The notes beneath the pieces were generated by a model. That model had not been told where the DNA came from and did no database searches. It saw only the letters and a program-made list of their open reading frames with translations. From NCBI GenBank assembly GCA_964493895.1, contig CAZBPY010000003.1, positions 15,176 through 79,175 on the forward strand: a stretch of DNA of 64,000 nucleotides, written 5' to 3'. Shown here in pieces: positions 16,782 to 62,632 of this stretch (the stretch's first letter is position 1; each line of letters begins with the position of its first letter). The translations under genes and the position numbers were made by a program. The DNA comes from an uncultured Candidatus Saccharibacteria bacterium (GTDB lineage Bacteria; Patescibacteriota; Saccharimonadia; Saccharimonadales; JAGQNJ01).

Positions 16782-16858
16782 GGGGTATTAGCTCAGTTGG
16801 CTAGAGCGCTTCGCTGGCAGCGAAGAGGTCAGCGGTTCGAGTCCGCTATACTCCACCA
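16782..16858 (+). tRNA. tRNA-Ala (anticodon GGC)
   Basis: Cloverleaf with G3:U70, anticodon loop cuGGCag and encoded CCA. Confidence 0.85.
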
Positions 16859-16884
16859 TTTTGATCGATAATTTTTTGATAGCA

Positions 16885-16909
16885 AGCTATACACAGGTGT
16901 AGCTTTTTT
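16885..16909 (+). terminator. Hairpin plus T-run downstream of tRNA-Ala
   Basis: agctatacac-ag-gtgtagct followed by TTTTTT. Confidence 0.5.
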
Positions 16910-17288
16910 ACTTTTTCGTCTTCGTCTGGTGGACTCAATAAAATACCACCGAATTCGGTTAATTCTTGTTTGCAGAAATCACAGTGTGGTTTGATAGCCA
17001 TAATAAATTGCGAAAATCGTGCGCGCCCACCCGGCGACGGGTAATTTTATGTTTAGTGGTTTTTGTTTTACACGTCGCGTTTTTGCGCACGATCCTCCTG
17101 AATACAATTAAACGCTTATGTTTAGTATATGTCAACTTGCAGTCGATTATTTGCGGCTCAATCTATCAACGCTACCATAGTTGCCATAGTGGTAGTTGCA
17201 AAGTGATACACTTTTTGTGTATAGAGTGTATCAAAATATTTATCACTGATTTTAGACGTATAGCCGCCAAAACATCTATAGCGCCATG

Positions 17289-19313: not shown

Positions 19314-20242
19314 AGCATACTCCGATAAAGGTTATAGACGTAAGTTATAGCTACTGGAAAAAGTAAAGCGGACAATATGAAGAAAGCTCCCTGAGCAGCC
19401 ACCGGTGCCAGAGCAATAAACGGCACTACCACCAAACCCATAACCAACAGTAAGATCAGCGGCAAAAACAACAGTTTTCTAATCACTGCCATCCGTCGAA
19501 ACCGCACTAATCCTCGGGCCGAGCGCAGTGCTCTCATCGGGGCCATATCCGGCAAGCTGACAATCAACAAGGCGAATATTGAGCTGCTGATGAGATAAAG
19601 GCTCAGTAGAGCTAAAAGAATCAAAAAAACCAGCCACAAAATTTTTTCAATTTCAGTAACAGCTAAACCGTTGGCAGTTACTGTTGCATATATACTGCTG
19701 CCTAGAGATAGTGGTAGTAGTTGAAGAGCTATCACCGCAATAACCAAAATAACTGGTATCAACGGTGTCATGCCGTTATAAAAAGCCTCCTTGACTGTTA
19801 CCGGATTAGACTTTGATTGAGAACCGTACATCCGCCTTAGACCATACAAAACGGCCAAGCTGAACAACAAAACCAAAGCAAATTGATAAATCCCCACTGA
19901 TTGATTGCTGAGCTGGGTGCTTGACCCAACCAAGGCAGTATAGACAATAGTACTTGCCGGTAACGATCCCATGGTGTCCATGAGTATGTCCCTGGCTTCG
20001 GTGACGTCAAAGACGCTGCTGCTCATCTGGACAAACACAAACGTCAGCACACCGTATATCAAAGAGAAGGTTATAAAAAAGCGTTTATTTTGACGAATAA
20101 TTCTTATGGTTTGGCGGCTCAACTCCATGACACTTGGCAGTTTGGCTTGCGATGGCTTAATCCGCTTCTGCAGATGAAACGATTTGTATTCTGGATCGGC
20201 TAATTTGCGCGGTTGTTTGGTGGTTGGTTTTTTACTTGCCAC
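19310..20242 (-). CDS. Hypothetical polytopic membrane protein
   Basis: Six or more predicted TM helices. Start overlaps ligA by 4 nt (ATGA). Lies downstream of htpX. Confidence 0.55.
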   Translation of the reverse strand: MASKKPTTKQPRKLADPEYKSFHLQKRIKPSQAKLPSVMELSRQTIRIIRQNKRFFITFSLIYGVLTFVFVQMSSSVFDVTEARDILMDTMGSLPASTIVYTALVGSSTQLSNQSVGIYQFALVLLFSLAVLYGLRRMYGSQSKSNPVTVKEAFYNGMTPLIPVILVIAVIALQLLPLSLGSSIYATVTANGLAVTEIEKILWLVFLILLALLSLYLISSSIFALLIVSLPDMAPMRALRSARGLVRFRRMAVIRKLLFLPLILLLVMGLVVVPFIALAPVAAQGAFFILSALLFPVAITYVYNLYRSML

Positions 20243-20243
20243 T

Positions 20244-21119
20244 TTAAGCAGCCTCTCCCATTTCCTTTAGCCGGGCAATCCTATCTTCAATTGGCGGGTG
20301 GGTACTAAATAGTGACGACATAAAACTTTTCTTCAATGGATTAGCAAAAAACAGATGAGCTGTAGAGCTGTTTTGTCGCCGCATGGTGCTGCCGTGAGCT
20401 TGCATTTTTTCCAGGGCGCCAATCAAGCCTTCAGGATAGCGAGTAGTTAAAGCACCGGTGGCATCAGCCAGGTACTCTCGCTTCCTGGAGATGGCCAGCT
20501 GAATGAACATAGCAATCAATGGAGCCAACAGGGCAGCCACAATGCCAATCAACATAACAACCTGATTGTTATTGCTGTTATTGTCGTCGCGAAACCACAT
20601 CGCCCGCAGGATGATGTCGGAAATCAAGGCTACTACCGCCACCAAAGCAAAGGCTACCATTGATACTCGAATGTCATAGTTTTTGACATGACCCAATTCG
20701 TGAGCCATAACCCCCTGGAGCTCCTTGTCATTCAACTTATCCAGCAGGCCTGTTGTAATTGCTACACTGGCCTTTTGAGGATTACGGCCGGTAGCAAAAG
20801 CGTTCAGGGCCGGATCGTCAATGATATAAATCCGGGGCGTCGGCAAACCTTCAGTAATAGCCAAGTTTTCGACAATCCGATACAGACGCGGATTATCTCG
20901 CTTGGTGATTTCCTGAGCTCCGTTCATAGTCAGCGACAATTTCGAGCTCGAATAATAGCTAAATAAAACGTACACCAGGGCGCCGATCAAAACATAAACC
21001 GTGATCGAAGTGTCACCCCACCATAGAGCGAACAGCCAGCCCAACAAGGCCACAAAGGCCACAAAGAAAATCATCAGAAAAACAGTTTTGCGCTTGTTGC
21101 CAGCAATTTGCTTATACAT
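20244..21119 (-). CDS. htpX: Zinc metalloprotease HtpX (M48 family)
   Basis: HELGHVKNYD HExxH motif, two N-terminal TM segments, downstream Glu ligand. Confidence 0.85.
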   Translation of the reverse strand: MYKQIAGNKRKTVFLMIFFVAFVALLGWLFALWWGDTSITVYVLIGALVYVLFSYYSSSKLSLTMNGAQEITKRDNPRLYRIVENLAITEGLPTPRIYIIDDPALNAFATGRNPQKASVAITTGLLDKLNDKELQGVMAHELGHVKNYDIRVSMVAFALVAVVALISDIILRAMWFRDDNNSNNNQVVMLIGIVAALLAPLIAMFIQLAISRKREYLADATGALTTRYPEGLIGALEKMQAHGSTMRRQNSSTAHLFFANPLKKSFMSSLFSTHPPIEDRIARLKEMGEAA

Positions 21120-21148
21120 TAACTCTAAACGCCTCCTGACTTGTTTGG

Positions 21149-21706
21149 TTAAAACTTAACGTCAGTCGGTTTTTCAATATTGGCTTGTTCAGCCTCGTCA
21201 ACTTCAAAAAATTCACGAATTTTAAAGCCCATCATGCCAGCAAAAACACTGGTGGGAAAGACCTGGATTTTAGTGTTTAGGTCGCGGACAGAACCGTTAT
21301 AGAATCGCCGCGCAGCCTGGATTTTATCTTCAGTGTCAACCAGTTCGGCCTGCAGTTCTTTGAAATTGTCGCTAGCCTTCAGATCTGGATAGTTCTCGGC
21401 CACGGCAAACAAACTTTTCAAAGCTTGCTCGAATTGGTTATCAGCCTTGGCGGTTTCCGCCGGCCCTTGAGCTTTGGTTATGGCACTACGAGCCTTGGTG
21501 ACTTCTTCAAAAACTCCCTTTTCATGCTTGGCATAACCCTTAACGGTGTTGACTAAATTTGGAATTAAATCACCTCGGCGCTTTAACTGAACTGTAATGT
21601 CGCTCCAGGCCTCATCGACTCGAATTTTGGCTCGAATCAAGCCGTTATAAATCAGCACCAGTATCAGCACTAATGCAGCTGCGGCGATGCCAATGTATAT
21701 CCACAT
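21149..21706 (-). CDS. lemA: LemA family protein
   Basis: N-terminal TM segment plus the LemA core. Start moved to MWIYIG (ATG 21706, SD aGGGGAG) because the longer ORF would overlap the tRNA-Leu gene. Confidence 0.8.
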   Translation of the reverse strand: MWIYIGIAAAALVLILVLIYNGLIRAKIRVDEAWSDITVQLKRRGDLIPNLVNTVKGYAKHEKGVFEEVTKARSAITKAQGPAETAKADNQFEQALKSLFAVAENYPDLKASDNFKELQAELVDTEDKIQAARRFYNGSVRDLNTKIQVFPTSVFAGMMGFKIREFFEVDEAEQANIEKPTDVKF

Positions 21707-21736
21707 AATTTTCTCCCCTGTTAAAACTGTAGTTTC

Positions 21737-21745
21737 ATTATAGCA
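21737..21745 (-). promoter_or_regulatory. Extended -10 TGCTATAAT for lemA-htpX
   Basis: About 30 nt upstream of the lemA ATG, between tRNA-Leu and lemA. Confidence 0.4.
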
Positions 21746-21770
21746 AAATCGCCGGCTGAAAAACAGAAGT

Positions 21771-21857
21771 TGGTGCGCGGGGCGGGACTCGAACCCGCAC
21801 GCCCAGTTGGGCATTTGATTTTAAGTCAAACTTGGCTACCAGTTACAACACCCGCGC
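21771..21857 (-). tRNA. tRNA-Leu (anticodon TAA), long variable arm
   Basis: 87 nt. Acceptor gcgcggg/cccgcgc, anticodon loop cuUAAaa, encoded CCA. Confidence 0.85.
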
Positions 21858-22349
21858 TCTCTGTAATCTTAACGCAACTTTCTTATTTTTGCCACGGTGT
21901 GTTGGTTGCAGACTGTGACAATTGGGACATAATATTCTTAGGTTTACTAACCTATTGTCTGTGGGATCACCATTGATGTGATCTAATTCCACTGGGATTC
22001 TACCGTCTATACTTCTTTCTGCCCATCCACAAATTTCACATTTTGGATTTTTTAATCCATCTTTGTAGAGACGGAGCTTTAGGGTATGGCTTTGGACTTT
22101 GCTGCCTTTTCGAAGCCACTTTTTTGTAGGTGTAATAGGAAGATTAAATTTATACAATCCGCCCTTGTTCCAGCCTCGACCGGTAAAATGATGGGTTGAG
22201 AGTTTTAGTTCAGCAACTCGTTCGGAAACTTGTTTATAGTTGCCGCCTGCCGGAATAAGGCCAATCTTTTTTATTACGGCTCGGTAACTAGTGCAAGTAG
22301 CCACCGCTTTCACTAATTGCTCGTCCGTCCAGCTGCGTTGCTTCGGCAT
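21843..22349 (-). CDS. HNH endonuclease (homing-endonuclease-like) with an N-terminal HTH-like region
   Basis: ELDHINGDPTDNRLVNLRILCPNCHS HNH/zinc motif. The 3' end overlaps the 5' end of tRNA-Leu(TAA) by about 15 nt. Confidence 0.75.
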   Translation of the reverse strand: MPKQRSWTDEQLVKAVATCTSYRAVIKKIGLIPAGGNYKQVSERVAELKLSTHHFTGRGWNKGGLYKFNLPITPTKKWLRKGSKVQSHTLKLRLYKDGLKNPKCEICGWAERSIDGRIPVELDHINGDPTDNRLVNLRILCPNCHSLQPTHRGKNKKVALRLQRARVL

Positions 22350-22643
22350 ACAGCCAGAGTACCAAACACATATTAAATACCTATTAAACGTGAATAATTT
22401 GGAGGCGCGTACGAGATTTGCACTCGTGTATAAGGTTTTGCAGACCTTTGCCTAACTCCTCGGCCAACGCGCCGCATAATATCCCTGTTCATTGTAACGT
22501 AAACCCCTGTTCAAGAAAATCGCTAAATATAGACCATTACATCCGACGACAGCCGGTTTTTTATGATCTAACCTAGCCCCTCTTCGCGAATTGCTCGGCA
22601 ATATCTTTATTTATAACCCAGAGGTTGGTTTGCCATCTCTGTC

Positions 22644-23021
22644 TTAGCCTTCGACTACCACCTCAAACCCGCCGTAAGCCATCTTGGTCATGTCGCTGGG
22701 CATCTCAAAGTTATCACCCACGTCCATGGCGTTCATCTCGGCCATGACCTTTTTGTTAACCTCATCGCGATGAGCTTTAGATTTGAAAATAATAAATGAA
22801 AACCAGATATTTTCGTCGGCATTGGCCCCGGCCATTTCCGTGAAAGCCCGCGATTTCACCGGCCCCATTTCTTGCTGCCCGAGATCGTCACCGCGGCATT
22901 CAAAATACTGCAAGGCACCATGCTTCATCCAAGAATCACGCCCCATTTCAGCCATTTTCTGATACTCTGCCTCTTTACCCTTGGGCACCACCAACACGAA
23001 TCCATCTACATACTTACCCAT
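22644..23021 (-). CDS. DUF1428 family protein
   Basis: MGKYVDGFVLVVPKGKEAEYQKMAE...WMKHGALQYFEC resembles DUF1428. Start chosen at the ATG at 23021. Confidence 0.55.
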   Translation of the reverse strand: MGKYVDGFVLVVPKGKEAEYQKMAEMGRDSWMKHGALQYFECRGDDLGQQEMGPVKSRAFTEMAGANADENIWFSFIIFKSKAHRDEVNKKVMAEMNAMDVGDNFEMPSDMTKMAYGGFEVVVEG

Positions 23022-23125
23022 TACTCTACTCCCCCTCACTTGGCCTTTACTCTCCTAGTTTAGCATTTAGCGCAAACGATAGGCAGCCAAATATCTGCTG
23101 GGTTTACTTTGGCTCGCCTGTCGTC

Positions 23126-23212
23126 TGGTGCGCGAGAGAGGACTTGAACCTCCACGCCCCTAGGGGCACAGGCCCCTCAAGCCTGCGCGTCTACCAATTC
23201 CGCCACTCGCGC
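23126..23212 (-). tRNA. tRNA-Leu (anticodon GAG), long variable arm
   Basis: 87 nt. Acceptor gcgcgag/ctcgcgc, anticodon loop uuGAGgg, CCA. Confidence 0.85.
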
Positions 23213-23308
23213 TTACCTGTTAATAATACGAATTTACCTCTGGAAAAGCAACCTCCCCAAAGCGAGCCATATTGCTTATGATTAAAATTTGTGTTATAAT
23301 TAGAAGAT

Positions 23309-24118
23309 ATGGTATCGCCAGAGGTGAAACTGACAGGTGTACTGCCAGGCAAACAACCGCCTTTTATATCGGCTGCTGATTATGAACATCTGGCCAAAAT
23401 ACAAACTTCCAAAATTATTCCGACTCAACTTTCCAGCGATCCAATTCGCTTTACTCATGATTTGGTACGCTTCCCGGTTGATAAAAAACTTCCAAAGCCA
23501 TTTGCCAAGTGGCTGGTTTATTGGGCTTCGCATGATACCGAACTAATTGACCATACACCAGATGATTTGCAACGCTTCCCAGGCATAAAGGATGCTCAAC
23601 AAACTCCATTGGAAGCTGGAGGGCGATGGTTTTGGGGAACAATTGCCCGTGCCAAGGAGACCAAGAAGGGTGCACATAAAGGTCCGGTTTCAGCATTTGG
23701 TTGGGCTCATCCGCTAAAAGGAGCTTTGACCAGTCGCGACATCCGGCAGCAAAGCAAAGAATTTGGGCTGAATATCAAGAGGACGGCCACGATTGCTATG
23801 CGGGTTACAGACGGCTTTCGGCATAGCGGTCTATTTACTCCATTTATGTTAGGCTCACTTTATGATTTTGTGCAGAGGACAACTGAAGGCAGTGAACAAC
23901 TCTATACAGATGCAGCCTTTCGAGTGTCATCGACAGAGAGGATATCTTTTCCGTTTCTGGAAAATGGAAGAGTAAGACAAATTTTGCGACCAGAGATTAT
24001 GGGCGGTAACCAAGGTGGGGTGCTTTATGCGCATTATGATCTGCGGAAATTGCTTGAATGCGAGCCGCGCGACCTCGGGTTGGAGCATCTGACCGAAGAT
24101 GATATAATAGCAAGCTGA
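23309..24118 (+). CDS. Hypothetical protein (269 aa), orphan, flanked by tRNA genes
   Basis: Long ORF with coding-like composition and no recognisable motif. Confidence 0.5.
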   Translation: MVSPEVKLTGVLPGKQPPFISAADYEHLAKIQTSKIIPTQLSSDPIRFTHDLVRFPVDKKLPKPFAKWLVYWASHDTELIDHTPDDLQRFPGIKDAQQTPLEAGGRWFWGTIARAKETKKGAHKGPVSAFGWAHPLKGALTSRDIRQQSKEFGLNIKRTATIAMRVTDGFRHSGLFTPFMLGSLYDFVQRTTEGSEQLYTDAAFRVSSTERISFPFLENGRVRQILRPEIMGGNQGGVLYAHYDLRKLLECEPRDLGLEHLTEDDIIAS

Positions 24119-24125
24119 AACTCAT

Positions 24126-24202
24126 GGGTTGTTAGCTCAGTTGGCTAGAGCACCTCGTTTACACCGAGGGGGTCGGGGGTTCGAGTCCCTCACAACCCAC
24201 CA
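24126..24202 (+). tRNA. tRNA-Val (anticodon TAC)
   Basis: Cloverleaf, anticodon loop uuUACac, CCA encoded. Confidence 0.85.
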
Positions 24203-24294
24203 TCTATTGTCGCTGGTAACGGTTCGTCAAAATTCTCACATCAGTGAGATTTTTTGTTTGCTAGAGTGGGGGTATTAAGGAAGGGACGATACCG

Positions 24295-24558
24295 ATGCCA
24301 ACAGGAGATCAATTTCGCCAAGCAGCTACAACAGCTAAACAAGCAGCCGAAGCTAAAAAAGCCGAAGTCCAGCGGATGCGTGAGACTGTAGCTCAGATGA
24401 AGCGCGACATGGAAGATCTGCATAAAACGGCTGACAGTTGGGAGCAGGAAATTAAACAGTTAGACAATCAGATTCGAGATCTTGAAGATCAGGCCCGCGA
24501 GGCCGATGAAGCCGAGCGCCGCCTTGAGTCTCAGCGACAGCAATACGATATCCGTTAG
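24295..24558 (+). CDS. Hypothetical small coiled-coil protein (87 aa)
   Basis: AAGGAAG SD 6 nt upstream. Heptad-rich, charged sequence. Confidence 0.5.
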   Translation: MPTGDQFRQAATTAKQAAEAKKAEVQRMRETVAQMKRDMEDLHKTADSWEQEIKQLDNQIRDLEDQAREADEAERRLESQRQQYDIR

Positions 24559-24646
24559 CCGGCCCAGGCCTGCATATACGTTGATTATCCAGAGGTAATA
24601 CGATAGAATACAGGGGTCTTTTGACATCGCTGTCTGGCGGCCGCTC

Positions 24647-24722
24647 GGCGCTATAGCTCAGTTGGTAGAGCAGAGGCCTGAAGAGCCTTGTGTCCCTGGT
24701 TCGAGTCCAGGTGGCGCCACCA
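24647..24722 (+). tRNA. tRNA-Phe (anticodon GAA)
   Basis: 76 nt, anticodon loop cuGAAga, CCA encoded. Confidence 0.85.
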
Positions 24723-24732
24723 TTTTAAGTTT

Positions 24733-24809
24733 GCGGGTGTAGCTCAGTTGTTTAGAGCGCATCCTTGCCAAGGATGAGGCCAGGGGTTAGAGTCCCCTCA
24801 CCCGCACCA
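24733..24809 (+). tRNA. tRNA-Gly (anticodon GCC)
   Basis: Anticodon loop uuGCCaa, CCA encoded. Confidence 0.85.
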
Positions 24810-24835
24810 AAGATTTCTAACTATGCTAATCTGTA

Positions 24836-24863
24836 AAACACCGAGAAAATCGGTGTTTTTTCG
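24836..24863 (+). terminator. Rho-independent terminator after the tRNA-Val/Phe/Gly cluster
   Basis: aacaccg-agaaaat-cggtgtt followed by TTTTTCG. Confidence 0.6.
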
Positions 24864-25000
24864 TTTAACCCATAGGGGACTTAAACTAACTAATAGAATA
24901 ACTATATGATGGACGAGCGAATAGAGCGTGGAAAATGGCTACTCAATAATGTTAAACACGCAGCAATGGCCACTGTGAGACACAAGGTCTACTCGTCTGA

Positions 25001-26662
25001 CTAGCTGCGTGGCAAGTGGTCTGCCAAATGATCCATGTTGTATTCGTCTCGCAGTTGAGCGACCTGCTTGGCCCGAGTTGCGCCAATCTTAACACCAGGA
25101 TTTAAAATTCCGTGCGGATCAAATATCTCTTTGACCTTTTCGAACAGGCCGTAGACTTGCTCACCAAAGAGGTCTTTCAGGTATATGGCCCTTAGCCGGC
25201 CATCGTTGTGTTCTCCGGCTGTGCTGCCGCCCATTTCAATCACCATTTTGTAGTAGTCGTCCATCAATTTGAAAACTGTCTGGCGATCGGCGACTTGCGA
25301 CAAATCTAGAAACGGTTGCAGATGAAGATTTGCGTCAGCAGCATGCCCCCACAGAGCCACCTTCAGGTGATACTTGTCAAACAATTTATAAATGCTCTCA
25401 ACAAATTCTTTGAATCTAGTCACCGGCACAATTCCATCCTCGACAATCGGCAGAGCCTTTTTCTTGCCCGAGACATGGGTTATCAGTGAAGCCGCCGAGT
25501 GGCGAATCTTCCACAGCTCATCACGTTTGTGATAATCAGAAGTCGTCTCGATATTATTAGTGTATGGCTTGACAATTTTGTGCAGCCGCTTGGTCTGTTT
25601 CTTTTGAATGCTGGTCTTAGCGTCATCAAATTCAACCAGCATGACAATCGCCGGATAAGGCGGCTCTATAAGGTTCTTCAGCTGATTTGGGTTGGTCTCG
25701 GCAATAAAGTCCAACAGGTGCCTGTCAACCATCTCGATTGCCGCTGGATTCAGCTTGCGAATTTCAGTCACTACATGGCTGGCATCCTCGATGTTATCAA
25801 AGCCAATCACCGTCAAAGTCCGCTGTGTATTATTAGGAATAACTTTTAGCTGAGCCGCTGTGACAATGCCCAGCGTCCCCTGCGATCCGACAATCAGCGG
25901 TGTCAGATCGAACACGCCGTGCTTTTGCTTGACATTGCTCAGGTCATAGCCAGCCGAATTTTTGGAGGTGTTCAGTTGGATTTGTTTGATCAGTTCGGAA
26001 TGGTCAGTTAAAAGATTATCCAGCTCGCGGTAAATCTCGCCCTCGAAGTTGGTCTGGCCTTTCTTTTTGTTGAGCTCGCGCCTCGACAATGGTCGGGTTT
26101 CAATCACTTCGCCATTGGCAAGGACCACCCGCAGAGCCTCGGTGTAACCGCGGGTATCGCCGTATTTGACCGTTCTCTCGCCGGCAGTGTTATTGGCCAC
26201 TGCTCCGCCTAGGGTAGCGTAATCGATTGAACTTGGAAACGGCGGCAAGAAGTAGCCGTGAGTTTTCAAAGTGTCTTGCAGGTTGCGGTAGTTAAGACCG
26301 GGCTGAACCAAGACCATGCCGTGCCGACTATCAAATTCCAGGAGTTTATTCATATGAGCCGGAAAAACCATGACGATTCCTTCGCCTATGGCTGCTCCGC
26401 CCTGGTCAGAACCCCGGCCACGGGCCGTGATCGGCAAAACCCGACCCCTTTCAGCTAGCTGCCAGGCAAACTTAGCGGTCTTGCGGACATCGTTTTCGTT
26501 CTCTGGGTAAACCACAAACTGAGGCAAAACTTCAAATACCCCGCCATCAGTCGAAAAATACTTCCGAGCTGTCATTGAGGTGATGACCTCGCCAACTAAA
26601 TGCTCTTGCAAATAATGCGCAATTTTACTCATGTCTGATCTCGGCTTTCCCTCCTCAGCCAA
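25001..26662 (-). CDS. FAD-binding oxidoreductase (GlcD / D-lactate dehydrogenase-like, FAD-linked oxidase family)
   Basis: FAD-binding PCMH domain (RGRGSDQGGAAIGEGIVMVF) and the C-terminal FAD-linked oxidase domain. Confidence 0.8.
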   Translation of the reverse strand: MAEEGKPRSDMSKIAHYLQEHLVGEVITSMTARKYFSTDGGVFEVLPQFVVYPENENDVRKTAKFAWQLAERGRVLPITARGRGSDQGGAAIGEGIVMVFPAHMNKLLEFDSRHGMVLVQPGLNYRNLQDTLKTHGYFLPPFPSSIDYATLGGAVANNTAGERTVKYGDTRGYTEALRVVLANGEVIETRPLSRRELNKKKGQTNFEGEIYRELDNLLTDHSELIKQIQLNTSKNSAGYDLSNVKQKHGVFDLTPLIVGSQGTLGIVTAAQLKVIPNNTQRTLTVIGFDNIEDASHVVTEIRKLNPAAIEMVDRHLLDFIAETNPNQLKNLIEPPYPAIVMLVEFDDAKTSIQKKQTKRLHKIVKPYTNNIETTSDYHKRDELWKIRHSAASLITHVSGKKKALPIVEDGIVPVTRFKEFVESIYKLFDKYHLKVALWGHAADANLHLQPFLDLSQVADRQTVFKLMDDYYKMVIEMGGSTAGEHNDGRLRAIYLKDLFGEQVYGLFEKVKEIFDPHGILNPGVKIGATRAKQVAQLRDEYNMDHLADHLPRS

Positions 26663-26726
26663 ACCATTACCATCTTACCCACTATAATACCACGACCACA
26701 ATCCTACATAAACATAAGCTGGAGAT

Positions 26727-26813
26727 TGGTGCGGATGAGAGGACTCGAACCTCCACGAGTCGAAGCTCACTAGCTCCTGAAGCTAGCGCGTCTACCAATT
26801 CCGCCACATCCGC
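26727..26813 (-). tRNA. tRNA-Leu (anticodon CAG), long variable arm
   Basis: 87 nt. Acceptor gcggatg/catccgc, anticodon loop uuCAGga, CCA. Confidence 0.85.
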
Positions 26814-29236: not shown

Positions 29237-30444
29237 CAGAGAAGCGGGGGCAAATTCTTGCTAAGCAAGCGGCTACCGTTTTTGGTTACCAGGATGTCGT
29301 CCTCAATGCGAACGCCAATATTCTCTTCGGGGATGATGATGCCCGGCTCGACTGCCAGCACCATGTTTTCGGCAAACTCGGTGTGATAATCACCAATGTC
29401 ATGGGTGTCCAGGCCTAGGTAGTGCGAGGTGGCGTGAGGGAAATACTTACGAATGGCTTTTCGAGACCGGACTTTAATCAGACCCAACTTTTTGAGCTCG
29501 TCACCAACAAACTTTTCAACCATTTTTTCGTATTCGCGGAAAGCCACGCCCGGCTTTATCAGACTGATGGCATAATCATGAGCCCTCAGACAGGCCTGTA
29601 AAACGGCTTGTTGTCTTTTGGTAGCTCTGCCCACCGGCAAAGTCCGGCTAATATCGGCGGCGTAATTATTAACCTCGGCGCCGGTGTCGATTAACAGCAG
29701 CTGGTTTTTGTAAATTTTGCCGCCATTGGCAAAACTATGAACCAGGGTTGCTTCGGGGCCGCTGGCTACTATGGTCTGAAAGGCATTGCCACGGGCACCC
29801 ATACGAACATACTCGTAATCCAGCCAAGCCACAGCTTCATAGGAGTATTCAATTTTCGGCAATCGACGAATTAGTGACTTAATAGCTGTTTCGGTTATCT
29901 CAATTGCCCGCTGTATTTCGGCAATCTCCTCTGGTTGTTTGATCATTCTCAGCTGCACAAAGGCTTCTCGCACATCGCGGGTTTTGAGGCCGGGATTGGT
30001 ACGGCGCAGACGTTCTTTAAGGTGGCGCCGAGCCGGATTGCTGTAAAAATCATAAAACCTGACAAACCGGGCCAGCGGCTCTAGGATCATCACCTCACGA
30101 ATATCTTTCAGTTTTTGGTTAAGCGGCGGCCAACCCTGAGCCTCGGTCAGAACTGATTTAATTCCAGAGGTTTTCTTTAGTTGCTCAACATCAATGCGAC
30201 CATCAAAGATGTTGCGAATCTCATCACGTGGCGGCAGGATCAGATATTCCCGCTCATCGTCCATTACCAGAATAATGTCCGGTTCGTCAATGCCGGTTAG
30301 GTACCAAAAATTGCTGTCCTGGCGAAAAGGATAAGTCGTATCGCCGGTGCGTTGCATCAGCCCGTTTGCGGTAATGATAATTAGTCCGGAGCCCACCGCC
30401 TCACGTAACTTGCGCCGGTTATTTACAAAAAACGAAGCTTTCAT
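29236..30444 (-). CDS. Xaa-Pro aminopeptidase (M24B family)
   Basis: Pita-bread fold metal-ligand motifs (HATSHYLGLDTHD, VLAVEPG). Confidence 0.8.
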   Translation of the reverse strand: MKASFFVNNRRKLREAVGSGLIIITANGLMQRTGDTTYPFRQDSNFWYLTGIDEPDIILVMDDEREYLILPPRDEIRNIFDGRIDVEQLKKTSGIKSVLTEAQGWPPLNQKLKDIREVMILEPLARFVRFYDFYSNPARRHLKERLRRTNPGLKTRDVREAFVQLRMIKQPEEIAEIQRAIEITETAIKSLIRRLPKIEYSYEAVAWLDYEYVRMGARGNAFQTIVASGPEATLVHSFANGGKIYKNQLLLIDTGAEVNNYAADISRTLPVGRATKRQQAVLQACLRAHDYAISLIKPGVAFREYEKMVEKFVGDELKKLGLIKVRSRKAIRKYFPHATSHYLGLDTHDIGDYHTEFAENMVLAVEPGIIIPEENIGVRIEDDILVTKNGSRLLSKNLPPLL

Positions 30445-31910
30445 GTTTTTGACTTCTTCTGCGCCCGGATGTACTGCTTTAGTATAGCGGCTTTTTTGAC
30501 TCCGACAACCTTTTCTAGTTCGCCGCTCCGAGCTTCCATAATACGTTTCATAGATCCAAAATGCCGCAGCAATTTTTGGCGACTGATCGGTCCGATGGTT
30601 GGAATGTCGTCCAGGAAACTGGCGGTTTGGCGCTGGCGCTTTAAAACCGTGTGGTAACTGACTGCAAATCTATGTGATTCGTCGCGGATTCTCTGCAGCA
30701 GCTTAACTATGTGTGACGACTTCGGCAACAACTGCATTTGAAAGCCATTATCGGTTTTTATAACGATTTCTTCCTCGCGTTTGGCCAATCCAATCATCGG
30801 AATATGCGAATAGCCGGCCTTATCTCTTGCCGCCAAAGCCGCACTGAGTTGCCCTTTGCCGCCATCAATCAAAAATAGATCTGGCAGCTTCCATTGCTTG
30901 ACATTTTTAGGACTAAGCCGGCGTATAATGGCTTCATTCATGTGAGCAAAGTCGTCGTTGCCAGGAATACGCATCTTGAATTTTCGGTACTCGGCCTTGT
31001 TAGGCAAGCCATTGGTGAAAACTACCATGCTAGCGGTGGTATCGGTGCCGCTCATGTGTGAAATGTCATAGCCCTCGATACGGCGCGGCGGCGCGGCTAG
31101 CCCCAAGAGATCGGCCAATCCGGCCAGGCCTTCGTCTTTACTGAGATCCATAAACTCGCGGTCACTAAACACGATCTGTCGAGTCAACCCCTTCAGAGCA
31201 AACAACTGCTTTTTCAGCCGCGCCGCCTCCTCGAACTGCTTAGCCTTAGCGGCTGCCATCATGTCACGTTCGACCTGGCTGATCAGAACCTTTCGCTCAC
31301 CCTTAAAGTACTGCATCAGCTTTCGTAAGTTTGCCCGGTAGTCTTTAACGTCGGTTTTACCTTCCTCCAAACCAGGGCACAGGCCCAGATGATACTGCAA
31401 ACAGGCTCGCTTTGGCACAACACCAGTGTGAGTCGAAAAAGGAAAAGCTCGCCGAAGATACTGTAAGGCTTTTTTAATGCTAAAAACATTAAAATACGGC
31501 CCAAAATACTTGGCTCCGTCATCCAGTGGCCGCCGGGTTATAGTCACTGTCGGATGCTCAGAGTTGTAATCGACCCGGATATAGCCGCTGCTTTTGTCAT
31601 CGCGCAGCAGAATGTTGTATCGTGGCTGGTAGCGCCGGACCAACTCGGCCTCCAAAAATAGGGCATCGAGTTCGGTTTCAACCGTAATCCAATCCAGGTC
31701 AGCAATCTCAGCTACCAGGGCTTCGGTCTTTGGATCCGGTGCCCGGCCCTTTTGAAAATACTGCCGCACCCGATTACGCAACCGGGCCGCTTTACCAACA
31801 TAAATAATTTTGCCGGACTTATTTTTGTACAAGTACACGCCCGGTTCCATCGGCAGGTCCTTTAGTCGGTCAGTATTAAACTTCTGATTCATGTTGAGCT
31901 CTTTTGGCAA
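30441..31910 (-). CDS. uvrC: Excinuclease ABC subunit C; likely true start is ATG 31892 (MNQKFNTDRL...)
   Basis: GIY-YIG domain (GVYLYKNKSGKIIYVGKA), UvrC RNase H-like domain and C-terminal HhH. Confidence 0.85.
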   Translation of the reverse strand: MPKELNMNQKFNTDRLKDLPMEPGVYLYKNKSGKIIYVGKAARLRNRVRQYFQKGRAPDPKTEALVAEIADLDWITVETELDALFLEAELVRRYQPRYNILLRDDKSSGYIRVDYNSEHPTVTITRRPLDDGAKYFGPYFNVFSIKKALQYLRRAFPFSTHTGVVPKRACLQYHLGLCPGLEEGKTDVKDYRANLRKLMQYFKGERKVLISQVERDMMAAAKAKQFEEAARLKKQLFALKGLTRQIVFSDREFMDLSKDEGLAGLADLLGLAAPPRRIEGYDISHMSGTDTTASMVVFTNGLPNKAEYRKFKMRIPGNDDFAHMNEAIIRRLSPKNVKQWKLPDLFLIDGGKGQLSAALAARDKAGYSHIPMIGLAKREEEIVIKTDNGFQMQLLPKSSHIVKLLQRIRDESHRFAVSYHTVLKRQRQTASFLDDIPTIGPISRQKLLRHFGSMKRIMEARSGELEKVVGVKKAAILKQYIRAQKKSKT

Positions 31911-31930
31911 TATACCTTAAAAGATATATT
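31909..31930. repeat. AT-rich palindromic repeat element, copy 2 (AATATACCTTAAAAGATATATT)
   Basis: Abuts the trhO stop codon and lies 16 nt upstream of the uvrC ATG. Confidence 0.6.
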
Positions 31931-32871
31931 CAAGTTCTACCTGCGTGTCTGGTCCTGCCAGCTGGAGCGGCCGGGACTTGAGTTTGCCGGTGAAGTTTTT
32001 GGCACTGGAGCTTTTCGCAAACTGGTGTTTGACGCTCGAGGCAAGTGGCGCAAATTAGCACCAGGCGATTGCAGGCCTTATTACTGCAGTTCTCATAATT
32101 GCTAGTCTTGTTCGAGCAATGGACGCAATCGCCAATATCTTTGGATTTTTCAGAAAAGCGCTGCACCATCCGATCATCAAAAATGTGCAAAGCCCCTTCC
32201 CACAAACCATCGTCACCATATTTTTCACCGTACTTAACTATGCCGCCGTCGAGCTGATAAACCTCTTTAAAACCACGATTTTTCATTAATGCCGACAATA
32301 TTTCGCAACGAATCCCGCCCGTGCAATATGTCACCACTGGCTTGTCTTTTATGTCATCGTACTTTCCCGACTCCAACTCCCGAACAAAATCATGTGTCGT
32401 TTTAGTATCAGGTACCGCGGCGTTTTTGAACTTGCCAATTTTAGCTTCGTAAGCATTCCGGCCATCGAAAAAAACTACGTCATCGCGTCGTTTTTCAACC
32501 AATTTATGAACTTGAGCCGGCTTGAGATGCTTGCCGCCACCTTTGACACCTTTTTCGTCAACCTCAATTTCATCCGGCCGGCCAAAGGCTACCAATTCTG
32601 GCCGGACTTTGACGCTCAACCGAGGAAAATCATCACCTGACCCTTGGCTCCACTTATAAGTTATTCCCTTAAAAATAACCGATTTGTTCATCTCCGACTT
32701 ATATTGACGCAAGGATTTTAGCGGCCCGCCTAAGGTTCCGTTGATGCCGTGTTTACTGATGATAACCCGACCCTTGAGGCCCAGACGGGTACAAAGTTCG
32801 CGTTGCCAACGCATAGTCATTTCCGGATCAATTACCGGCACAAACTTGTAGTATAGAATCACCTTTTCCAT
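31930..32871 (-). CDS. trhO: tRNA uridine(34) hydroxylase TrhO (rhodanese-related, UPF0176/YceA)
   Basis: Rhodanese active-site CTGGIRCE and the YceA-type N-terminus. C-terminal Cys cluster. Confidence 0.8.
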   Translation of the reverse strand: MEKVILYYKFVPVIDPEMTMRWQRELCTRLGLKGRVIISKHGINGTLGGPLKSLRQYKSEMNKSVIFKGITYKWSQGSGDDFPRLSVKVRPELVAFGRPDEIEVDEKGVKGGGKHLKPAQVHKLVEKRRDDVVFFDGRNAYEAKIGKFKNAAVPDTKTTHDFVRELESGKYDDIKDKPVVTYCTGGIRCEILSALMKNRGFKEVYQLDGGIVKYGEKYGDDGLWEGALHIFDDRMVQRFSEKSKDIGDCVHCSNKTSNYENCSNKACNRLVLICATCLERQTPVCEKLQCQKLHRQTQVPAAPAGRTRHAGRT

Positions 32872-32901: not shown

Positions 32902-32930
32902 TTGTCATCATTTGACATAAGTGCTATAAT
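32902..32930 (+). promoter_or_regulatory. Sigma70-type promoter: -35 TTGTCA, 17-bp spacer, extended -10 TGcTATAAT
   Basis: Near-consensus elements about 190 nt upstream of the ABC exporter start. Confidence 0.55.
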
Positions 32931-32963
32931 TGTAGGATTGTAAAAGTAACGGAGAGGCGACAG

Positions 32964-33035
32964 ATGTACCACGTACAAAATTCAATCATGATCGACACGT
33001 TTGTCGCTGAGCAAACTTGCGCATATGTGCGCTAA
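32964..33035 (+). CDS. Candidate 23-aa upstream ORF / leader peptide (MYHVQNSIMIDTFVAEQTCAYVR)
   Basis: GGAGAGG SD 6 nt upstream of the ATG. Lies in the 5' leader between the promoter and the ABC gene. A GC hairpin (gcgcatatgtgcgc) overlaps its last codons. Confidence 0.35.
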   Translation: MYHVQNSIMIDTFVAEQTCAYVR

Positions 33036-33116
33036 GCTGCCTCCCGGACTCTCGTACACTAAAACCCAAAATTCCCAAAATCCCCACCAACTAACCGCAG
33101 CAAGGAGCCTGCGAAT

Positions 33117-34875
33117 GTCATTATCTAAACGAACTGTAAAAATTTACTTTCAAGCCAATTGGCGCCGCAAAAAACTATTTTTCGGGGCAATTTTTGGCTG
33201 GACTGCTGGTTTTATACTTCAGCGTCTAGTAGTGCCAATTGTCATTGCCAGGGCTTTCGACAAGCTGATTGAGCATCAGGGCAACGTTGATTTTTCGATG
33301 TTTAAAGATGAAATCGGATTGTTCGTACTGGCCGCGCTTACTGCTCAAGCCTTGATAGATGGCGGGCTCTTCACCCTCAGCCGACTTGAGTATCGTGTGA
33401 TGGAGGAATTTTATGACAAGATTTTCGCTAAACTTTTAAGCCATAGCCAGAATTTTCACAACAATTCATTCACGGGTGCCTTAGTGAACCAAGCAAACAG
33501 ATTTGTTAGTGGATATGTAACTGTAACAGACACCTTTGTTATGAGCTTCTTCCAGCTGTTTGTTTTAGTGGTTTTATCATCTGTTGTGTTGCTATTTCTA
33601 TCGCCGCCTCTGGGCGTCATCATAATTACTTGGTCGCTTATCTTTGTGGTGATTAATTACCGACTGACAAAGAGACGGGTTGCTGCTGGTAGAGAAAGGG
33701 CTAGGCGGGACTCCATCCTGACTGGCAATCTTGCCGACAGCATCAGTAACATTAGCGCCATCAAAGCAACAGCCGCAGAAGCCTACGAGAAAAAGGCCTT
33801 CAATGTCAATGTTCGGGCTAAGGTTATGGCCAATTTAAGATACTGGGATTTGACGGTTACCAATGACATATTTTATGGCATATTAATGGTGTTGCTGCAG
33901 TTCACGGTTCTGATAGCCTGTATTTTCCTCATGAAGAACGGAAGTATTACTGCAGGTGTATTAATTTTGTCACAGATTTACATAACACAAATCATTAACA
34001 GTCTGTGGAATTTAAGTAGTGTTCTAAAGAACCTGGAACAAAGCCTATCTGATGCTGCAGAAATGACAGAAATTCTTGACCTGCCAGCTTCGGTCTTTGA
34101 TTCCCACAATGCCAAAGAACTAAGAGTTAAAAACGGCGAGATAACTCTTGACCATATTGATTTCACCCATGCCGACAATCAAGAAGCTTTGTTTAAAAAC
34201 CTCTCAGTAAGTATTGTCGCCGGTGAAAAGGTTGGCCTGGTCGGACGAAGTGGTGGTGGTAAAACAACCATAACTAAATTGTTGCTAAGATTTTCTGACA
34301 TCCAGGGAGGCCAAATTCTGATTGATGGTCAGAATATTGCCGAAGTAACCCAAGAAAGTCTGCGTAAAAGCATCTCCTATGTCCCTCAAGAACCGTTGCT
34401 CTTTCACCGATCACTCGCTGAAAACATCTCTTATGGTAAGCCTGAAGCCAGCCAAAAGGAAATCGAACGCGTCGCAAAAATGGCTCATGCCCACGAGTTC
34501 ATCAAGGATTTGCCGCAAGGTTACGACACCCTGGTCGGCGAACGTGGTGTAAAGCTGTCGGGTGGTCAGCGTCAGCGTGTTGCCATAGCCCGGGCCATGA
34601 TTAAAGATGCCCCTATTTTGGTCCTGGACGAAGCCACTTCAGCCCTGGACTCCGAGAGTGAGCTGCTAATTCAGGATGCTCTCTGGAAATTGATGGAGGG
34701 TCGCACTGCGATTGTTATTGCTCACCGTCTAAGCACCATCCAAAAGATGGACCGGATAATTGTTATGGACAACGGCGAGATCGTTGAACAGGGCACTCAT
34801 AAAGAACTGATTGCCAAAAAAGGTACGTACGCCGATTTATGGAAGCATCAATCTGGAGGCTTTATAGATGAATAA
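33117..34875 (+). CDS. ABC transporter ATP-binding/permease protein (type I exporter half-transporter, MsbA-like)
   Basis: Six TM helices, Walker A GRSGGGKTT, signature LSGGQRQR, Walker B ILVLDEATS. Start taken at the ATG with AAGGAG SD rather than the upstream TTG at 33001. Confidence 0.8.
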
Positions 34876-36676
34876 CCGCACTGATGCCATAAAAAGAAAC
34901 ATCCAGCTAATTGTACGGATGTTGGGAACAGGTTTTAAGTTGCGTCCAGCTGGGGTGATTCTCTATTTCGCTGGAGCAATATTGGAGATTGGAGCATTCA
35001 TTGGCTCGGTTTATGCAACAGCTCGACTTGGTGCCTTGCTGGCTGCTTTCATTACTAGCGGTAATACCGAGGGCATTTGGTTCTGGCTGTGGGTTGATAT
35101 TGTCGCCGCCTTAATAATCGCTCTTGGCCACTTTGTTATGGGATACGCCAAGCGATTGATGTACTTCGCTTTTGTTCGCTGGTCGACCAATAGTTACCTG
35201 GCCGCGCTATCTCGACTAGATATTGAAGATTTTTACGATGAAGAACGTCGAAACTTAATCAACAAAGTCGGTAGCGCCTATAGCTGGCAAATTCCTAACT
35301 TGATGGAAATGAACCTGGACCTGATTTACGGAATTATGAGGTTCTTAGCAATCACTATGGTGGTGGCCCAAATTACGTGGTGGCTGGTTCCTTTGATCGC
35401 TCTTTTCTTGGTGCCAACTTTAATTGCCGAGAGTCGGATGGCTAAGTTGCAGTGGTTTGTCTGGGATCAAAAAGGTGATGAGCGCCATATTTTCTGGGGC
35501 CTTGATTGGATAATCAAGCGGGCTCGGGGGCAAATGGAGCTTCGTAGTACCCAGGCTACAAATTATATGCTTAACAAAATCGATAGCATGAACAATGACT
35601 TCTACTCAACTCAGGAACGAGAATTCAACAAAGCTTCGAAAATCAGCTTGCCAACCAGATTTCTAGAAGTAGTTGGAACTTCGATAGGCTCGATAGTGTT
35701 ATTAAAACAATTACTATCGCGGACGATACCACTCGATCGATATTTCTTCCTTTCAGGAGCTTTGCTGCGGGTCGGCGGTGCTTTAAATGCTATATTTATG
35801 ACCTTATCGCGCATGCAAGAATCATTGTTGTTCGCCGACAGTTATTTCAGCCTAGCGGACTTCAAGCCTAAACTAGTTGACCAGCTCAGATCGATCGACC
35901 TTCCGATCGATGGCCAAGCACCAACAATTGAATTTAGAAATGTTTACTTCACCTATCCTGGCCACAACCAGCCGGTGTTTGAAAATCTTAACCTAAAAGT
36001 TGGGGCCGGAGAGCATGTAGCATTAGTGGGCGAAAACGGAGCTGGCAAGACTACATTAATTAAGTTGTTACTACGTTTTTACAAACCAACTTCGGGTCAA
36101 ATTTTAATCAACGGACACGATTTGCAGGAGTTATCGATTGAATCTTGGTACAACCACATAGCGACTTTGTTCCAGCAATTTAACGAGTATCCCTTCCCGA
36201 TTGACGAGAATATCTATGTTGGTCGTTCGACAGCCAAACCAGATAAGAAGGCTCTGAAAGAAGCAGCTGACTTTGGTGGTGTGAGTAGTTTTGTTAAACG
36301 TTACAAGCACGGTTGGGACACAGTTTTGGACAGCAGTTTTAAAAATGGTGTTGAGCCAAGTGGCGGCCAATGGCAGCGCGTTGCTTTGGCTCGAGCCTTC
36401 TACCGCCAAGCCAGTGTTCTAATTCTAGATGAGCCAACTTCTGCCATCGATGCCCGAGCCGAGTACGATATTTTCAACAATATCTTCAAGCATTTTCAAA
36501 GCAAAACTGCCTTGATTGTCAGCCACCGTTTTAGTACCGTTCGCCGGGCTGACCGAATTATTGTAATCGACCGGGGCAAAATCATTGCCGAGGGCAGCCA
36601 TCAAGAATTAATGCACGATAAAAAGGGAATGTACTACGACCTATTCACCAAACAGGCTGAAGGCTACTTAGACTAG
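34868..36676 (+). CDS. ABC transporter ATP-binding/permease protein (second half of a probable heterodimer)
   Basis: Six TM helices, Walker A GENGAGKTT and a degenerate signature PSGGQWQR. Start overlaps the upstream gene by 8 nt. Confidence 0.8.
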   Translation: MNNRTDAIKRNIQLIVRMLGTGFKLRPAGVILYFAGAILEIGAFIGSVYATARLGALLAAFITSGNTEGIWFWLWVDIVAALIIALGHFVMGYAKRLMYFAFVRWSTNSYLAALSRLDIEDFYDEERRNLINKVGSAYSWQIPNLMEMNLDLIYGIMRFLAITMVVAQITWWLVPLIALFLVPTLIAESRMAKLQWFVWDQKGDERHIFWGLDWIIKRARGQMELRSTQATNYMLNKIDSMNNDFYSTQEREFNKASKISLPTRFLEVVGTSIGSIVLLKQLLSRTIPLDRYFFLSGALLRVGGALNAIFMTLSRMQESLLFADSYFSLADFKPKLVDQLRSIDLPIDGQAPTIEFRNVYFTYPGHNQPVFENLNLKVGAGEHVALVGENGAGKTTLIKLLLRFYKPTSGQILINGHDLQELSIESWYNHIATLFQQFNEYPFPIDENIYVGRSTAKPDKKALKEAADFGGVSSFVKRYKHGWDTVLDSSFKNGVEPSGGQWQRVALARAFYRQASVLILDEPTSAIDARAEYDIFNNIFKHFQSKTALIVSHRFSTVRRADRIIVIDRGKIIAEGSHQELMHDKKGMYYDLFTKQAEGYLD

Positions 36677-62243: not shown

Positions 62244-62632
62244 TGGTGGAGCTGCAGGGAATTGCACCCTGGTCCGCGGGATTATTCGGTTAGTCGTCTA
62301 CAGGCTTAGTTTGTTTTCGATACTTGAAGCCGGGCCTAAAAACAAACAAAATAGCACGCGACTCGCAGTCCTAAAGTCTTAAGTTGCTTTACGGATCATA
62401 AAGCAACCGCAGCCAGAAAATATGGCACGCTCTAGGCCTATCCGGCGTCAGACTAGGCGCGGCTGTAGGCAATTAAGCTACAGCTGGTGCGAAAGCTAGA
62501 GCTTTGAACGGATTCAAAGCAGCTAGGCGTTCACTAATAGATGTTTTTGCATCTAAAAAAACTGCCTATAACGCTGACAAGCGGCCTGCGGATCTAACCA
62601 ATAAAGTCCTACGTCGAGCTAAAATCAGCCCC
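62244..62632 (-). ncRNA. ssrA: tmRNA (SsrA), 389 nt; predicted tag AKTSISERLAALNPFKALAFAPAVA
   Basis: 5' GGGGCUGAUUUUAGCUCGACGUAGGAC (compare E. coli GGGGCUGAUUCUGGAUUCGACGGGAU). tRNA-like 3' end with T-arm cagggUGCAAUUccctg, acceptor CAGCUCC-A-CCA and a G3:U Ala determinant. Resume codon GCA at RNA position 83. Tag ORF 62473..62550 ends UAA. Confidence 0.8.

Follow-up and report, generated by a model that had tools for sequence, protein, structure and literature searches.

The locus

The stretch of DNA analysed here (the window) is 64,000 nucleotides of contig CAZBPY010000003.1, from the genome (48% GC) of an uncultured member of the Saccharibacteria (TM7, Candidate Phyla Radiation). It contains two overlapping genes for ATP-binding cassette (ABC) half-transporters, ABC1 and ABC2, preceded by a leader that carries a 23-codon upstream open reading frame (uORF) with its own Shine-Dalgarno (SD) sequence (Table 1). 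The transcription start site (TSS) is predicted at about 32937 and the leader extends to 33114, a length of about 178 nt. An earlier note on this DNA had drawn attention to the promoter, the long leader, the mini-ORF (GGAGAGG-N6-ATG) and the two half-size exporters with their 8-nt overlap, and each of these is present where that note had located it.

A single 23-codon ORF proves nothing by itself, and promoter-like sites in the region are not in excess (6 were found, and 7.9 are expected from shuffled sequence). The decisive evidence is retention of the whole layout upstream of ABC1 in about 40 orthologous loci (referred to below by L numbers), in which ABC1 itself is only 44-62% identical. 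What precedes ABC1 is a member of a new, class-wide (Saccharimonadia) family of uORF-containing leaders that is absent from Rfam.

Table 1. Coordinates, in the window, of the ABC1 leader, its parts and the adjoining genes
Feature	Position	Strand	Description
Promoter	32902..32930	+	TTGTCA (32902-07), 17-nt spacer, extended -10 TGcTATAAT (32922-30)
uORF SD-like GGAGAGG	32951..32957	+	6 nt (cgacag) before the ATG
uORF	32964..33035	+	23 codons, MYHVQNSIMIDTFVAEQTCAYVR, stop TAA (33033-35)
Helix P1	32959..33005	+	32959-67 (GACAGAUGU) pairs with uORF codons 12-14, 32997-33005 (ACGUUUGUC)
Closing helix P0 (predicted)	32950..33046	+	32950-58 CGG.GAGGC with 33039-46 GCCUC.CCG
Stop-proximal hairpin P2	33006..33037	+	includes GCGCAUAUGUGCGC (33019-32); stop codon at the 3' edge
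Spacer	33036..33095	+	G-depleted, C/A-rich, predicted unstructured; A20 C25 G5 T10 of 60 nt
Hairpin P3 at the ABC1 ribosome-binding site	33096..33113	+	arms 33096-101 / 33107-113; SD AAGGAG (33102-07) mostly in the loop
ABC1	33115..34875	+	586 aa, ABCB-type half-transporter (transmembrane domain, TMD, plus nucleotide-binding domain, NBD); fully canonical ATPase motifs
ABC2	34868..36676	+	602-aa half-transporter; 8-nt overlap with ABC1 (ATGAATAA)
trhO	31930..32871	-	tRNA U34 hydroxylase, rhodanese family; divergent neighbour, synteny anchor

A family of leaders upstream of ABC1

In the orthologous loci the same parts follow one another in constant order within the 150-330 nt 5' of ABC1: promoter, purine block, ATG, ORF, spacer, AGGAGG hairpin and ABC1 start. 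The purine block lies about 25 nt after the promoter, and the uORF ATG 4-10 nt after the block. UAACGGAAAGGGCGRC is the best-conserved sequence of the leader; the purine block takes this form or CC(N)GGAGGCGGC in relatives, and the GGAGAGG of the window is part of it. The earlier note had named absence of the leader from relatives and lack of conservation of the uORF as what would speak against its reading; both leader and uORF are retained.

A covariance model built from 14 leaders was used to search 0.83 Mb of sequence. Each Saccharibacteria locus gave exactly one match, immediately 5' of ABC1 and on its strand, and there was none elsewhere (35 matches at E <= 1, zero in ABC loci from outside the Saccharibacteria). 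It also recovered leaders that had not been picked by eye (L008, L014, L015, L031). A search of Rfam 15 with the window leader and two orthologous leaders gave no match at E up to 10, and a full-text search of the literature yielded no description of such a leader.

The window leader joins this family by its genomic position and its ordered parts: promoter type, purine block, ATG-initiated uORF, P1 arms, G-poor spacer and P3. Its uORF is longer by about 6 codons. Judged by synteny, by the order of its parts and by the UUUGUCGCU / GGCGACA arms that it has in common with L019, L164 and L165, it is a diverged, long-uORF member of the family. Since most orthologous loci have no ABC2, the leader belongs to ABC1 and not to a heterodimer as such.

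Two local variants of the region were seen. A sub-clade has an extra hairpin between uORF and ABC1 (L001:3924-3942, L026:3903-3921, L016:3868-3884), in which the stem covaries (GGCUAC/GUAGCC vs CUGGC/GCCAG) around an invariant AGCGUGA loop; this may be a protein-binding site. The uORF leader is missing from three orthologous loci with short intergenic regions (L005:3897-3913, L011:3940-3956, L002:3902-3916, and flanks). These have a common element instead, AUCCUCUAU..CGC(C)AAC-GAUCGGACGYGCCGAUC-CUAUAGCG, consisting of an anti-SD-like CCUCU followed by a long hairpin, while the P3 SD hairpin is kept. The element may be an alternative regulatory design for ABC1.

The promoter

The promoter described by the earlier note (TTGTCA-17-TGcTATAAT) scores 11 of 12 matches plus the TG extension, with its -10 TATAAT at 32925-30. 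A second -35-like hexamer, TTGACA (32912-17), lies 7 nt upstream of the -10 element. It is this closer arrangement, TTGACA-N7-(TGn)TATAAT, and not the one with 17-nt spacing, that relatives conserve upstream of the uORF.

Promoters of the N7 type place the -35-like hexamer one helical turn nearer to the -10 element than is usual. In the window, TTGACA-N7(8)-TATAAT promoters with TG at -15/-14 occur at 32912-32930 (+), 4546 (-), 38514 (-) and 62662 (-), the last of these, with a spacing of 8, upstream of the gene for transfer-messenger RNA (tmRNA). The type is also found in the orthologous leaders of L019, L006, L021, L164 and L165, and some examples have a second hexamer at the normal 17-nt spacing (in the window, 32902 and 4556 (-)). 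Across Saccharibacteria loci a spacing of 7 is enriched (31 observed vs 8 expected, many of the counts being the ABC1 leader itself). The N7-type spacing may be how promoters of this lineage are generally built, or it may mark an operator.

The upstream open reading frame

From the conserved ATG, all 36 distinct leaders read through 14-23 codons to an in-frame stop, with a mode of 17. Measured from the same position in the other two frames, the first stop falls within that range in only 5/36 and 2/36 leaders (the shuffle null is 0.21). Over the approximately 40 loci, the long class included, the range is 14-24 codons. The alignment made with the covariance model, which is blind to reading frame, gives the same picture: the distance from aligned ATG to aligned TAA or TAG is a multiple of 3 in 29 of 31 distinct rows, with length classes of 42, 48, 51, 54 and 57 nt. 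In the two exceptions, L084 and L087, a common 1-nt deletion shifts the frame, and the stop that they then meet is two codons further on. TGA is not used as a uORF stop (24 TAA and 12 TAG in the 36 leaders), whereas 25% of the long ORFs in the window end with it.

The base 3' of the uORF stop is C in 21/36 leaders, compared with 8/40 for long ORFs of the window. TGA avoidance and this stop context could mean that a particular release factor or termination context is needed, or they could be due to RNA pairing.

The encoded peptide is not conserved. Peptides of the 17-codon class are on average 15% identical. Residues recur in two places only: (T/V)-A at positions 12-13, for which the P1 arm codes, and Cys as the last residue of half of the sequences. 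When the uORFs of three close relatives are compared, 8 of 10 codon differences prove to be non-synonymous. The window uORF falls in the long class with its closest relatives L164 (24 codons) and L165 (23 codons), whose peptides, MVFKPITSETEMLVADARLAFLAS and MYYNSTLKQPRATVAVMSSSCNC, have only xVA in common with the window peptide, encoded by GUCGCY. Double-glycine motifs, runs of regulatory codons and a conserved arrest motif are all absent from the uORF peptides. The uORF is not annotated as a gene in the records of the relatives examined.

The earlier note had proposed to ask whether the peptide sequence or only its position is conserved in related genomes. Position, SD, ATG, in-frame stop and length are kept, and the peptide is not. 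Conservation of frame, length, start and stop in combination with a freely changing product is typical of a regulatory leader ORF, and the same conservation suggests that the uORF is translated.

Helices P1 and P3

Helices were assessed by explicit pair counting, by duplexes and folds of individual sequences, and by the covariance model. From MAFFT alignments of the leader and the ABC1 initiation region, RNAalifold derived no structure; the helices lie in shifted registers.

In P1, the uORF SD and its spacer (GGGCGRC and flanking purines) pair with codons about 11-14 of the uORF (GYCGCCC); the P1 core of the window, GGCGACA:UGUCGCU, is homologous to the GGGCGRC:GYCGCCC of relatives. The two arms are paired in 83% of cells, vs 36-64% in slid controls, and a second alignment agrees. 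Compensatory changes are found in 22 cells, and the covariation score was reached by 0/500 shuffles. Duplex energies for individual sequences range from -12 to -28 kcal/mol. In the ensemble the uORF SD is 0.29 unpaired, and the ATG lies in a large open loop. Because P1 pairs the SD and its spacer with codons about 11-14, the uORF initiation site is closed unless a ribosome occupies the 3' arm. That arm lies 3-8 codons before the uORF stop.

A hairpin of the P3 type is present in 36/36 orthologous ABC1 initiation regions (mean dG -10.4 kcal/mol; mean z -2.5 vs flank shuffles), and in 32/36 the GGA of the SD is within a 4-5 nt loop. The arm sequences vary between loci and their complementarity is kept, that is to say, the arms covary. 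Pair counting on the MAFFT alignment gives 56% paired, a figure that is diluted by the presence of two registers. A U-run directly 3' of P3 is lacking in most loci.

Two further helices turn up in many folds of individual sequences, that of the window among them. P0 would pair the uORF SD itself with sequence just 3' of the stop; several relatives show 5' UAACGG : CCGUUA pairings like it, and the family mean z of -0.4 is no better than shuffles. P2 corresponds to the stop-proximal GC hairpin of the earlier note (GCGCATATGTGCGC, 33019-32). Besides the window, L165 is predicted to form a hairpin at this position, though of unrelated sequence; family-wide P2 is not significant (mean z -1.0). P0 and P2 are accordingly best regarded as predictions specific to the lineage, and P1 and P3 are the only helices claimed here. 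A three-way junction formed by P0, P1 and P2 was considered, is attractive in single folds, and was rejected in view of the family-wide performance of P0 and P2.

The spacer and its relation to the ABC1 start

Between the uORF stop and the ABC1 SD hairpin or start there are 48-150 nt (79 nt in the window), of which 40-100 nt form a G-poor spacer that is predicted to be unstructured. The spacer of the window is 42% C and 8% G. Pooled over the family (1831 nt), spacers are A.42, C.24, G.07 and T.27, vs 18% G in control 5' regions of the same genomes. Depletion of G is thus clear across the family; richness in C is not general.

Simulated ribosome footprints at the uORF stop, at codon 9 and over the whole uORF leave the accessibility of the ABC1 SD unchanged (0.65 vs 0.62, 0.64 and 0.66). 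Duplexes between the uORF domain and the ABC1 initiation region are, on average, no better than those of shuffled uORF domains (mean z -0.6; 4/35 below -2). The exceptions (L090/L091, L082, L034; z -2.5 to -4.3) arise because the P1 3' arm is anti-SD-like and therefore also fits the similar SD of ABC1.

ABC1, ABC2 and the gene neighbourhood

ABC1 starts at ATG 33115. Its closest bacterial relatives of solved structure are Sav1866, exporters of the Atm1 type and MsbA. A domain search of ABC1 found ABC_membrane and ABC_tran only, with no C39 peptidase and no accessory or cargo-recognition domain, and neither ABC1 nor ABC2 reached an NCBIfam equivalog cut-off. Walker A, the Walker B Asp-Glu (LDE) and the H-loop His are present in ABC1 and ABC2 alike, and the ABC2 signature, PSGGQWQR, has an intact SGGQ core; the earlier note had overstated the case in calling this signature degenerate. 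(ABC2, like ABC1, is an ABCB-type protein with a TMD and an NBD; its TMD draws no Pfam ABC_membrane match.) Adjacent, co-transcribed half-transporter genes are the layout of heterodimeric exporters of the BmrCD / TM287-288 / LmrCD type, and the two genes of the window adjoin with their 8-nt overlap; the degenerate ATP site of those exporters, which has lost the Walker B Glu and has a non-canonical H-loop and signature, is absent from ABC1 and ABC2.

The heterodimeric exporter proposed by the earlier note is plausible in this window. An ABC2 orthologue (58-68% identity), however, follows ABC1 in a minority of loci only (L003/4, L006, L019, L031, L035, L093). ABC1 stands alone in most loci, and other tandem ABC genes are present in some. 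The identity of ABC1 is 57-62% in the closest relatives and 44-51% in species representatives, and no relative above 62% was found in the collections searched.

Two observations on the transporter genes stand apart. In some relatives (L166, L006, L035, L031) tandem ABC half-transporter genes number three or four. In genomes that have both proteins (L003, L006, L019, L031, L035, L093, L166), the patchily distributed ABC2 is more conserved (58-68%) than the ubiquitous ABC1 (44-49%).

The gene order in the window is uvrC, trhO (divergent), leader, ABC1, ABC2, rplY (convergent) and dedA, and the predicted trhO promoter is back-to-back with that of the leader. The closest relatives keep uvrC-trhO-leader-ABC1-rplY-dedA, with trhO synteny in L161, L162, L165 and L167.

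The uvrC gene of the window (30441-31910, -) specifies a product of 489 aa (497-504 aa in relatives). The UvrC profile matches it in two stretches, residues 14-245 and 265-485, which correspond to profile positions 3-231 and about 386-606, so that the protein seems, from this comparison, to lack about 150 central residues; a short UvrC is probably typical of the lineage. Elsewhere in the window, eight tRNA genes are spread over about 10 kb (16782-26813), and the tmRNA gene is at 62244-62632 (-).

A possible mechanism

The reading that we tentatively favour, with somewhat less than even confidence, is that the leader senses ribosome occupancy of the uORF and acts through the naked spacer, by way of Rho, of RNase or of standby loading of ribosomes. 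The extended -10 promoter would start a transcript whose first 100 nt or so constitute a mini-cistron. A ribosome would load on the uORF mainly co-transcriptionally, before the P1 3' arm emerges about 45 nt later; the other opportunity for loading would arise while a preceding ribosome is still on the last codons of the uORF and covers that arm. The dwell time of the ribosome at the end of the uORF would then set two things: whether P1 is open, and whether the start of the spacer is shielded. Slow elongation or termination, as under translation stress or in the presence of ribosome-targeting antibiotics, would lengthen the dwell. With the spacer shielded, transcription or the mRNA would survive and ribosomes would reach ABC1; with the spacer unshielded, Rho-dependent termination or endonuclease attack would keep the output of ABC1(-ABC2) low. 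The input sensed would be the act of translating the uORF and not its peptide, and the coupling would operate with neither a hairpin swap of the ermC type nor an intrinsic terminator.

We propose, by analogy with tnaC/speFL and toiL (PMC12360218, PMC12121999) and with bmrB-bmrCD (PMC4191407), that slow translation of the uORF would raise ABC1(-ABC2), either because the spacer is protected from Rho or endonucleases or because ribosomes are fed onto a standby site for the SD embedded in P3.

Several points weigh against this proposal. Its weakest step is the link from uORF to ABC1 output: no alternative pairing between them was found, and nowhere in the leader (32937-33114) does a T-run follow a terminator-like hairpin. 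The spacers of AT-rich relatives, poor in G, are rich in A and not in C; an A-rich spacer suits a ribosome standby site or enhancer at least as well as a Rho utilization (rut) site, which weakens the reading as rut. A tblastn search with the E. coli Rho sequence detected no homologue in the 64-kb window and the orthologous loci, and a literature search gave nothing on Rho in Saccharibacteria, reviews listing Rho absences for other phyla only. No specific signal can be named for a uORF that has no conserved arrest motif. The window leader is too diverged to be found by the covariance models R1 and R2, even with filters off (both also miss several visibly homologous leaders), and its place in the family rests on synteny, architecture and the UUUGUCGCU / GGCGACA arms. 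Both the TSS and translation of the uORF are inferred from sequence, as is any regulation.

Other explanations of the leader

The interpretation offered by the earlier note, a regulatory leader working by translation attenuation, has fared unevenly: the uORF-containing cis element is conserved, and attenuation is unsupported. In classic attenuation (ermC, cat, cmlA type) a stalled uORF ribosome melts a hairpin that hides the SD of the downstream gene. The ABC1 leader offers much that such a mechanism would use, namely a well-initiated short uORF before an efflux-type gene, an ABC1 SD inside a hairpin and, in L090/L091, L082 and L034, a P1 3' arm that could pair with the ABC1 SD region. Against this stand the distance of 48-150 nt, with an unstructured spacer, between the uORF stop and the ABC1 start, the indifference of ABC1 SD accessibility to a simulated uORF footprint, inter-domain duplexes at the level of shuffles, and the self-contained, local nature of P3, whose arms covary with each other; we consider attenuation of this type quite improbable. 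(The terminator/antiterminator pairing for which the earlier note had suggested a search did not materialize: the leader has no terminator-like site and no alternative pairing.) Still further down the scale is a functional micropeptide, whether a cargo or signal exported by the ABC pair, as the earlier note had alternatively suggested, or a small subunit or regulator of the transporter. An ORF conserved beside a transporter, with a terminal Cys in half of its 17-aa versions, invites the idea. Yet the peptides share no sequence beyond the residues specified by the P1 arm, most substitutions that separate close relatives are non-synonymous, the C-terminus can be frameshifted, and a membrane helix would call for a longer and more hydrophobic peptide. 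The cargo reading fails because ABC1 has neither a peptidase nor an accessory domain and the peptide is unconserved, and we hold the micropeptide to be very improbable in any of its forms.

A structured RNA sensor, in which P1 and the purine block bind a ligand or a protein (as a riboswitch or protein-binding element) and the ORF is incidental or secondary, would account for the covariation of P1, for UAACGGAAAGGGCGRC being the best-conserved sequence, and for retention of the GUGCUAACUCU nucleotides in L084/L087 in spite of the frame change caused by their 1-nt deletion. It fits less well with the 45-55 nt enclosed by P1, which are unconserved and variable in length, unlike an aptamer core, with conservation of ATG, frame, stop and length, with the lack of family-wide significance of P0 and P2, and with the absence of an Rfam match; it is improbable, if less so than attenuation. 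The stabiliser-plus-standby role is a serious rival, even though we judge it unlikely: a constitutive, expression-tuning 5' untranslated region (UTR) that senses nothing, in which the SD-like block with its uORF ribosome, or the stem, guards the mRNA against 5' decay and the spacer is a standby site or enhancer that offsets P3. The STAB-SD of cryIIIA is a comparable 5' mRNA stabiliser. Only about 15-20 nt separate the SD-like block from the predicted 5' end, most relatives have a spacer enriched in A and not C, standby sites classically consist of a hairpin flanked by single-stranded RNA, and arrest motif and regulatory codons are lacking, all as this explanation would have it. A pure stabiliser, on the other hand, could do without an in-frame stop conserved at 14-24 codons and would have no need to avoid TGA, and sequestration of its own SD, as in P1, is typical of leaders designed for a single, timed round of translation.

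The occupancy-sensing reading has a more far-reaching form, which we find rather doubtful: a sensor of a new class, of ancient standing in Saccharibacteria, that combines RNA structure with a uORF. In it a self-closing mini-cistron would be read essentially once per transcript, and the dwell of this pioneer ribosome would gate the G-free spacer. Such a sensor, if real, would be a general switch from translation stress to exporter for epibionts that are poor in regulators, for example in dealing with ribosome-targeting antibiotics of the host.

Implications

Gene regulation in bacteria of the Candidate Phyla Radiation is almost unexplored; their genomes are tiny and, so far as is known, have few transcription factors. 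If ribosome occupancy of the uORF is what the leader senses, it would provide a concrete and testable case of cis-acting, ribosome-dependent control before a syntenic and widely conserved exporter gene. Saccharibacteria live attached to actinobacterial hosts, and an exporter that responds to translation stress would be relevant to life on antibiotic-producing Actinobacteria. A design that works with neither terminator nor hairpin swap would also bear on the question of how bacterial uORFs signal at a distance.

Comparison with known systems

The ermC, cat and cmlA leaders resemble the Saccharibacteria leader in two respects: a short, well-initiated ORF precedes a resistance- or efflux-type gene, and a hairpin contains the SD of that gene. 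The overlap of leader ORF and SD-sequestering stem that is characteristic of them is absent here. In leaders of the trp type, a distal segment pairs with the ribosome-binding site of the leader peptide after the first round of translation. Self-sequestration of the leader SD by P1 would, in like manner, limit translation of the uORF to a co-transcriptional pioneer round, but runs of regulatory codons and a terminator/antiterminator pair are not part of the Saccharibacteria leader.

In tnaC-tnaA and speFL-speF of the Rho-dependent leaders, the stop codon of the uORF adjoins a rut site (PMC12360218). The arrangement in the window is similar to the extent that a short uORF is directly followed by a spacer of 42% C and 8% G that is predicted to be unstructured and that a ribosome lingering at the stop could shield. 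TnaC and SpeFL are conserved arrest peptides that sense a metabolite, whereas the Saccharibacteria uORF peptides are unconserved, and the spacers of AT-rich relatives have A, not C, as their prevalent base. The toiL-topAI leader of E. coli is a multipurpose, antibiotic-sensing uORF that acts with Rho (PMC12121999). As with toiL, the lack of any single conserved arrest motif could let the uORF respond to translation stress of many kinds; in both, there is structure at the downstream ribosome-binding site, and one output that has been proposed is premature termination. Ribosomes stalled on toiL remodel the structure of the topAI ribosome-binding site, a pairing that has no detectable counterpart in the Saccharibacteria leader.

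The bmrB-bmrCD system of Bacillus subtilis controls an ABC multidrug exporter by ribosome-mediated transcription attenuation (PMC4191407). The bmrB leader has alternative stem-loops that include an intrinsic terminator, and the Saccharibacteria leader has neither a terminator nor alternative stems between uORF and gene; with no terminator, unchanged SD accessibility and no inter-domain pairing, attenuation of the ermC/cat and of the bmrB/trpL type is unsupported. The Saccharibacteria uORF is shorter than bmrB and has its SD sequestered. The two subunits of BmrCD form an asymmetric heterodimer, while ABC1 usually stands alone and both proteins of the window have consensus ATP sites. The two systems are nevertheless alike in having a small ORF directly upstream of, and co-transcribed with, genes for ABCB-type half-transporters (in Saccharibacteria the co-transcription is predicted), and they would be alike also in that translation of the leader ORF, and not its product, is the regulatory input.

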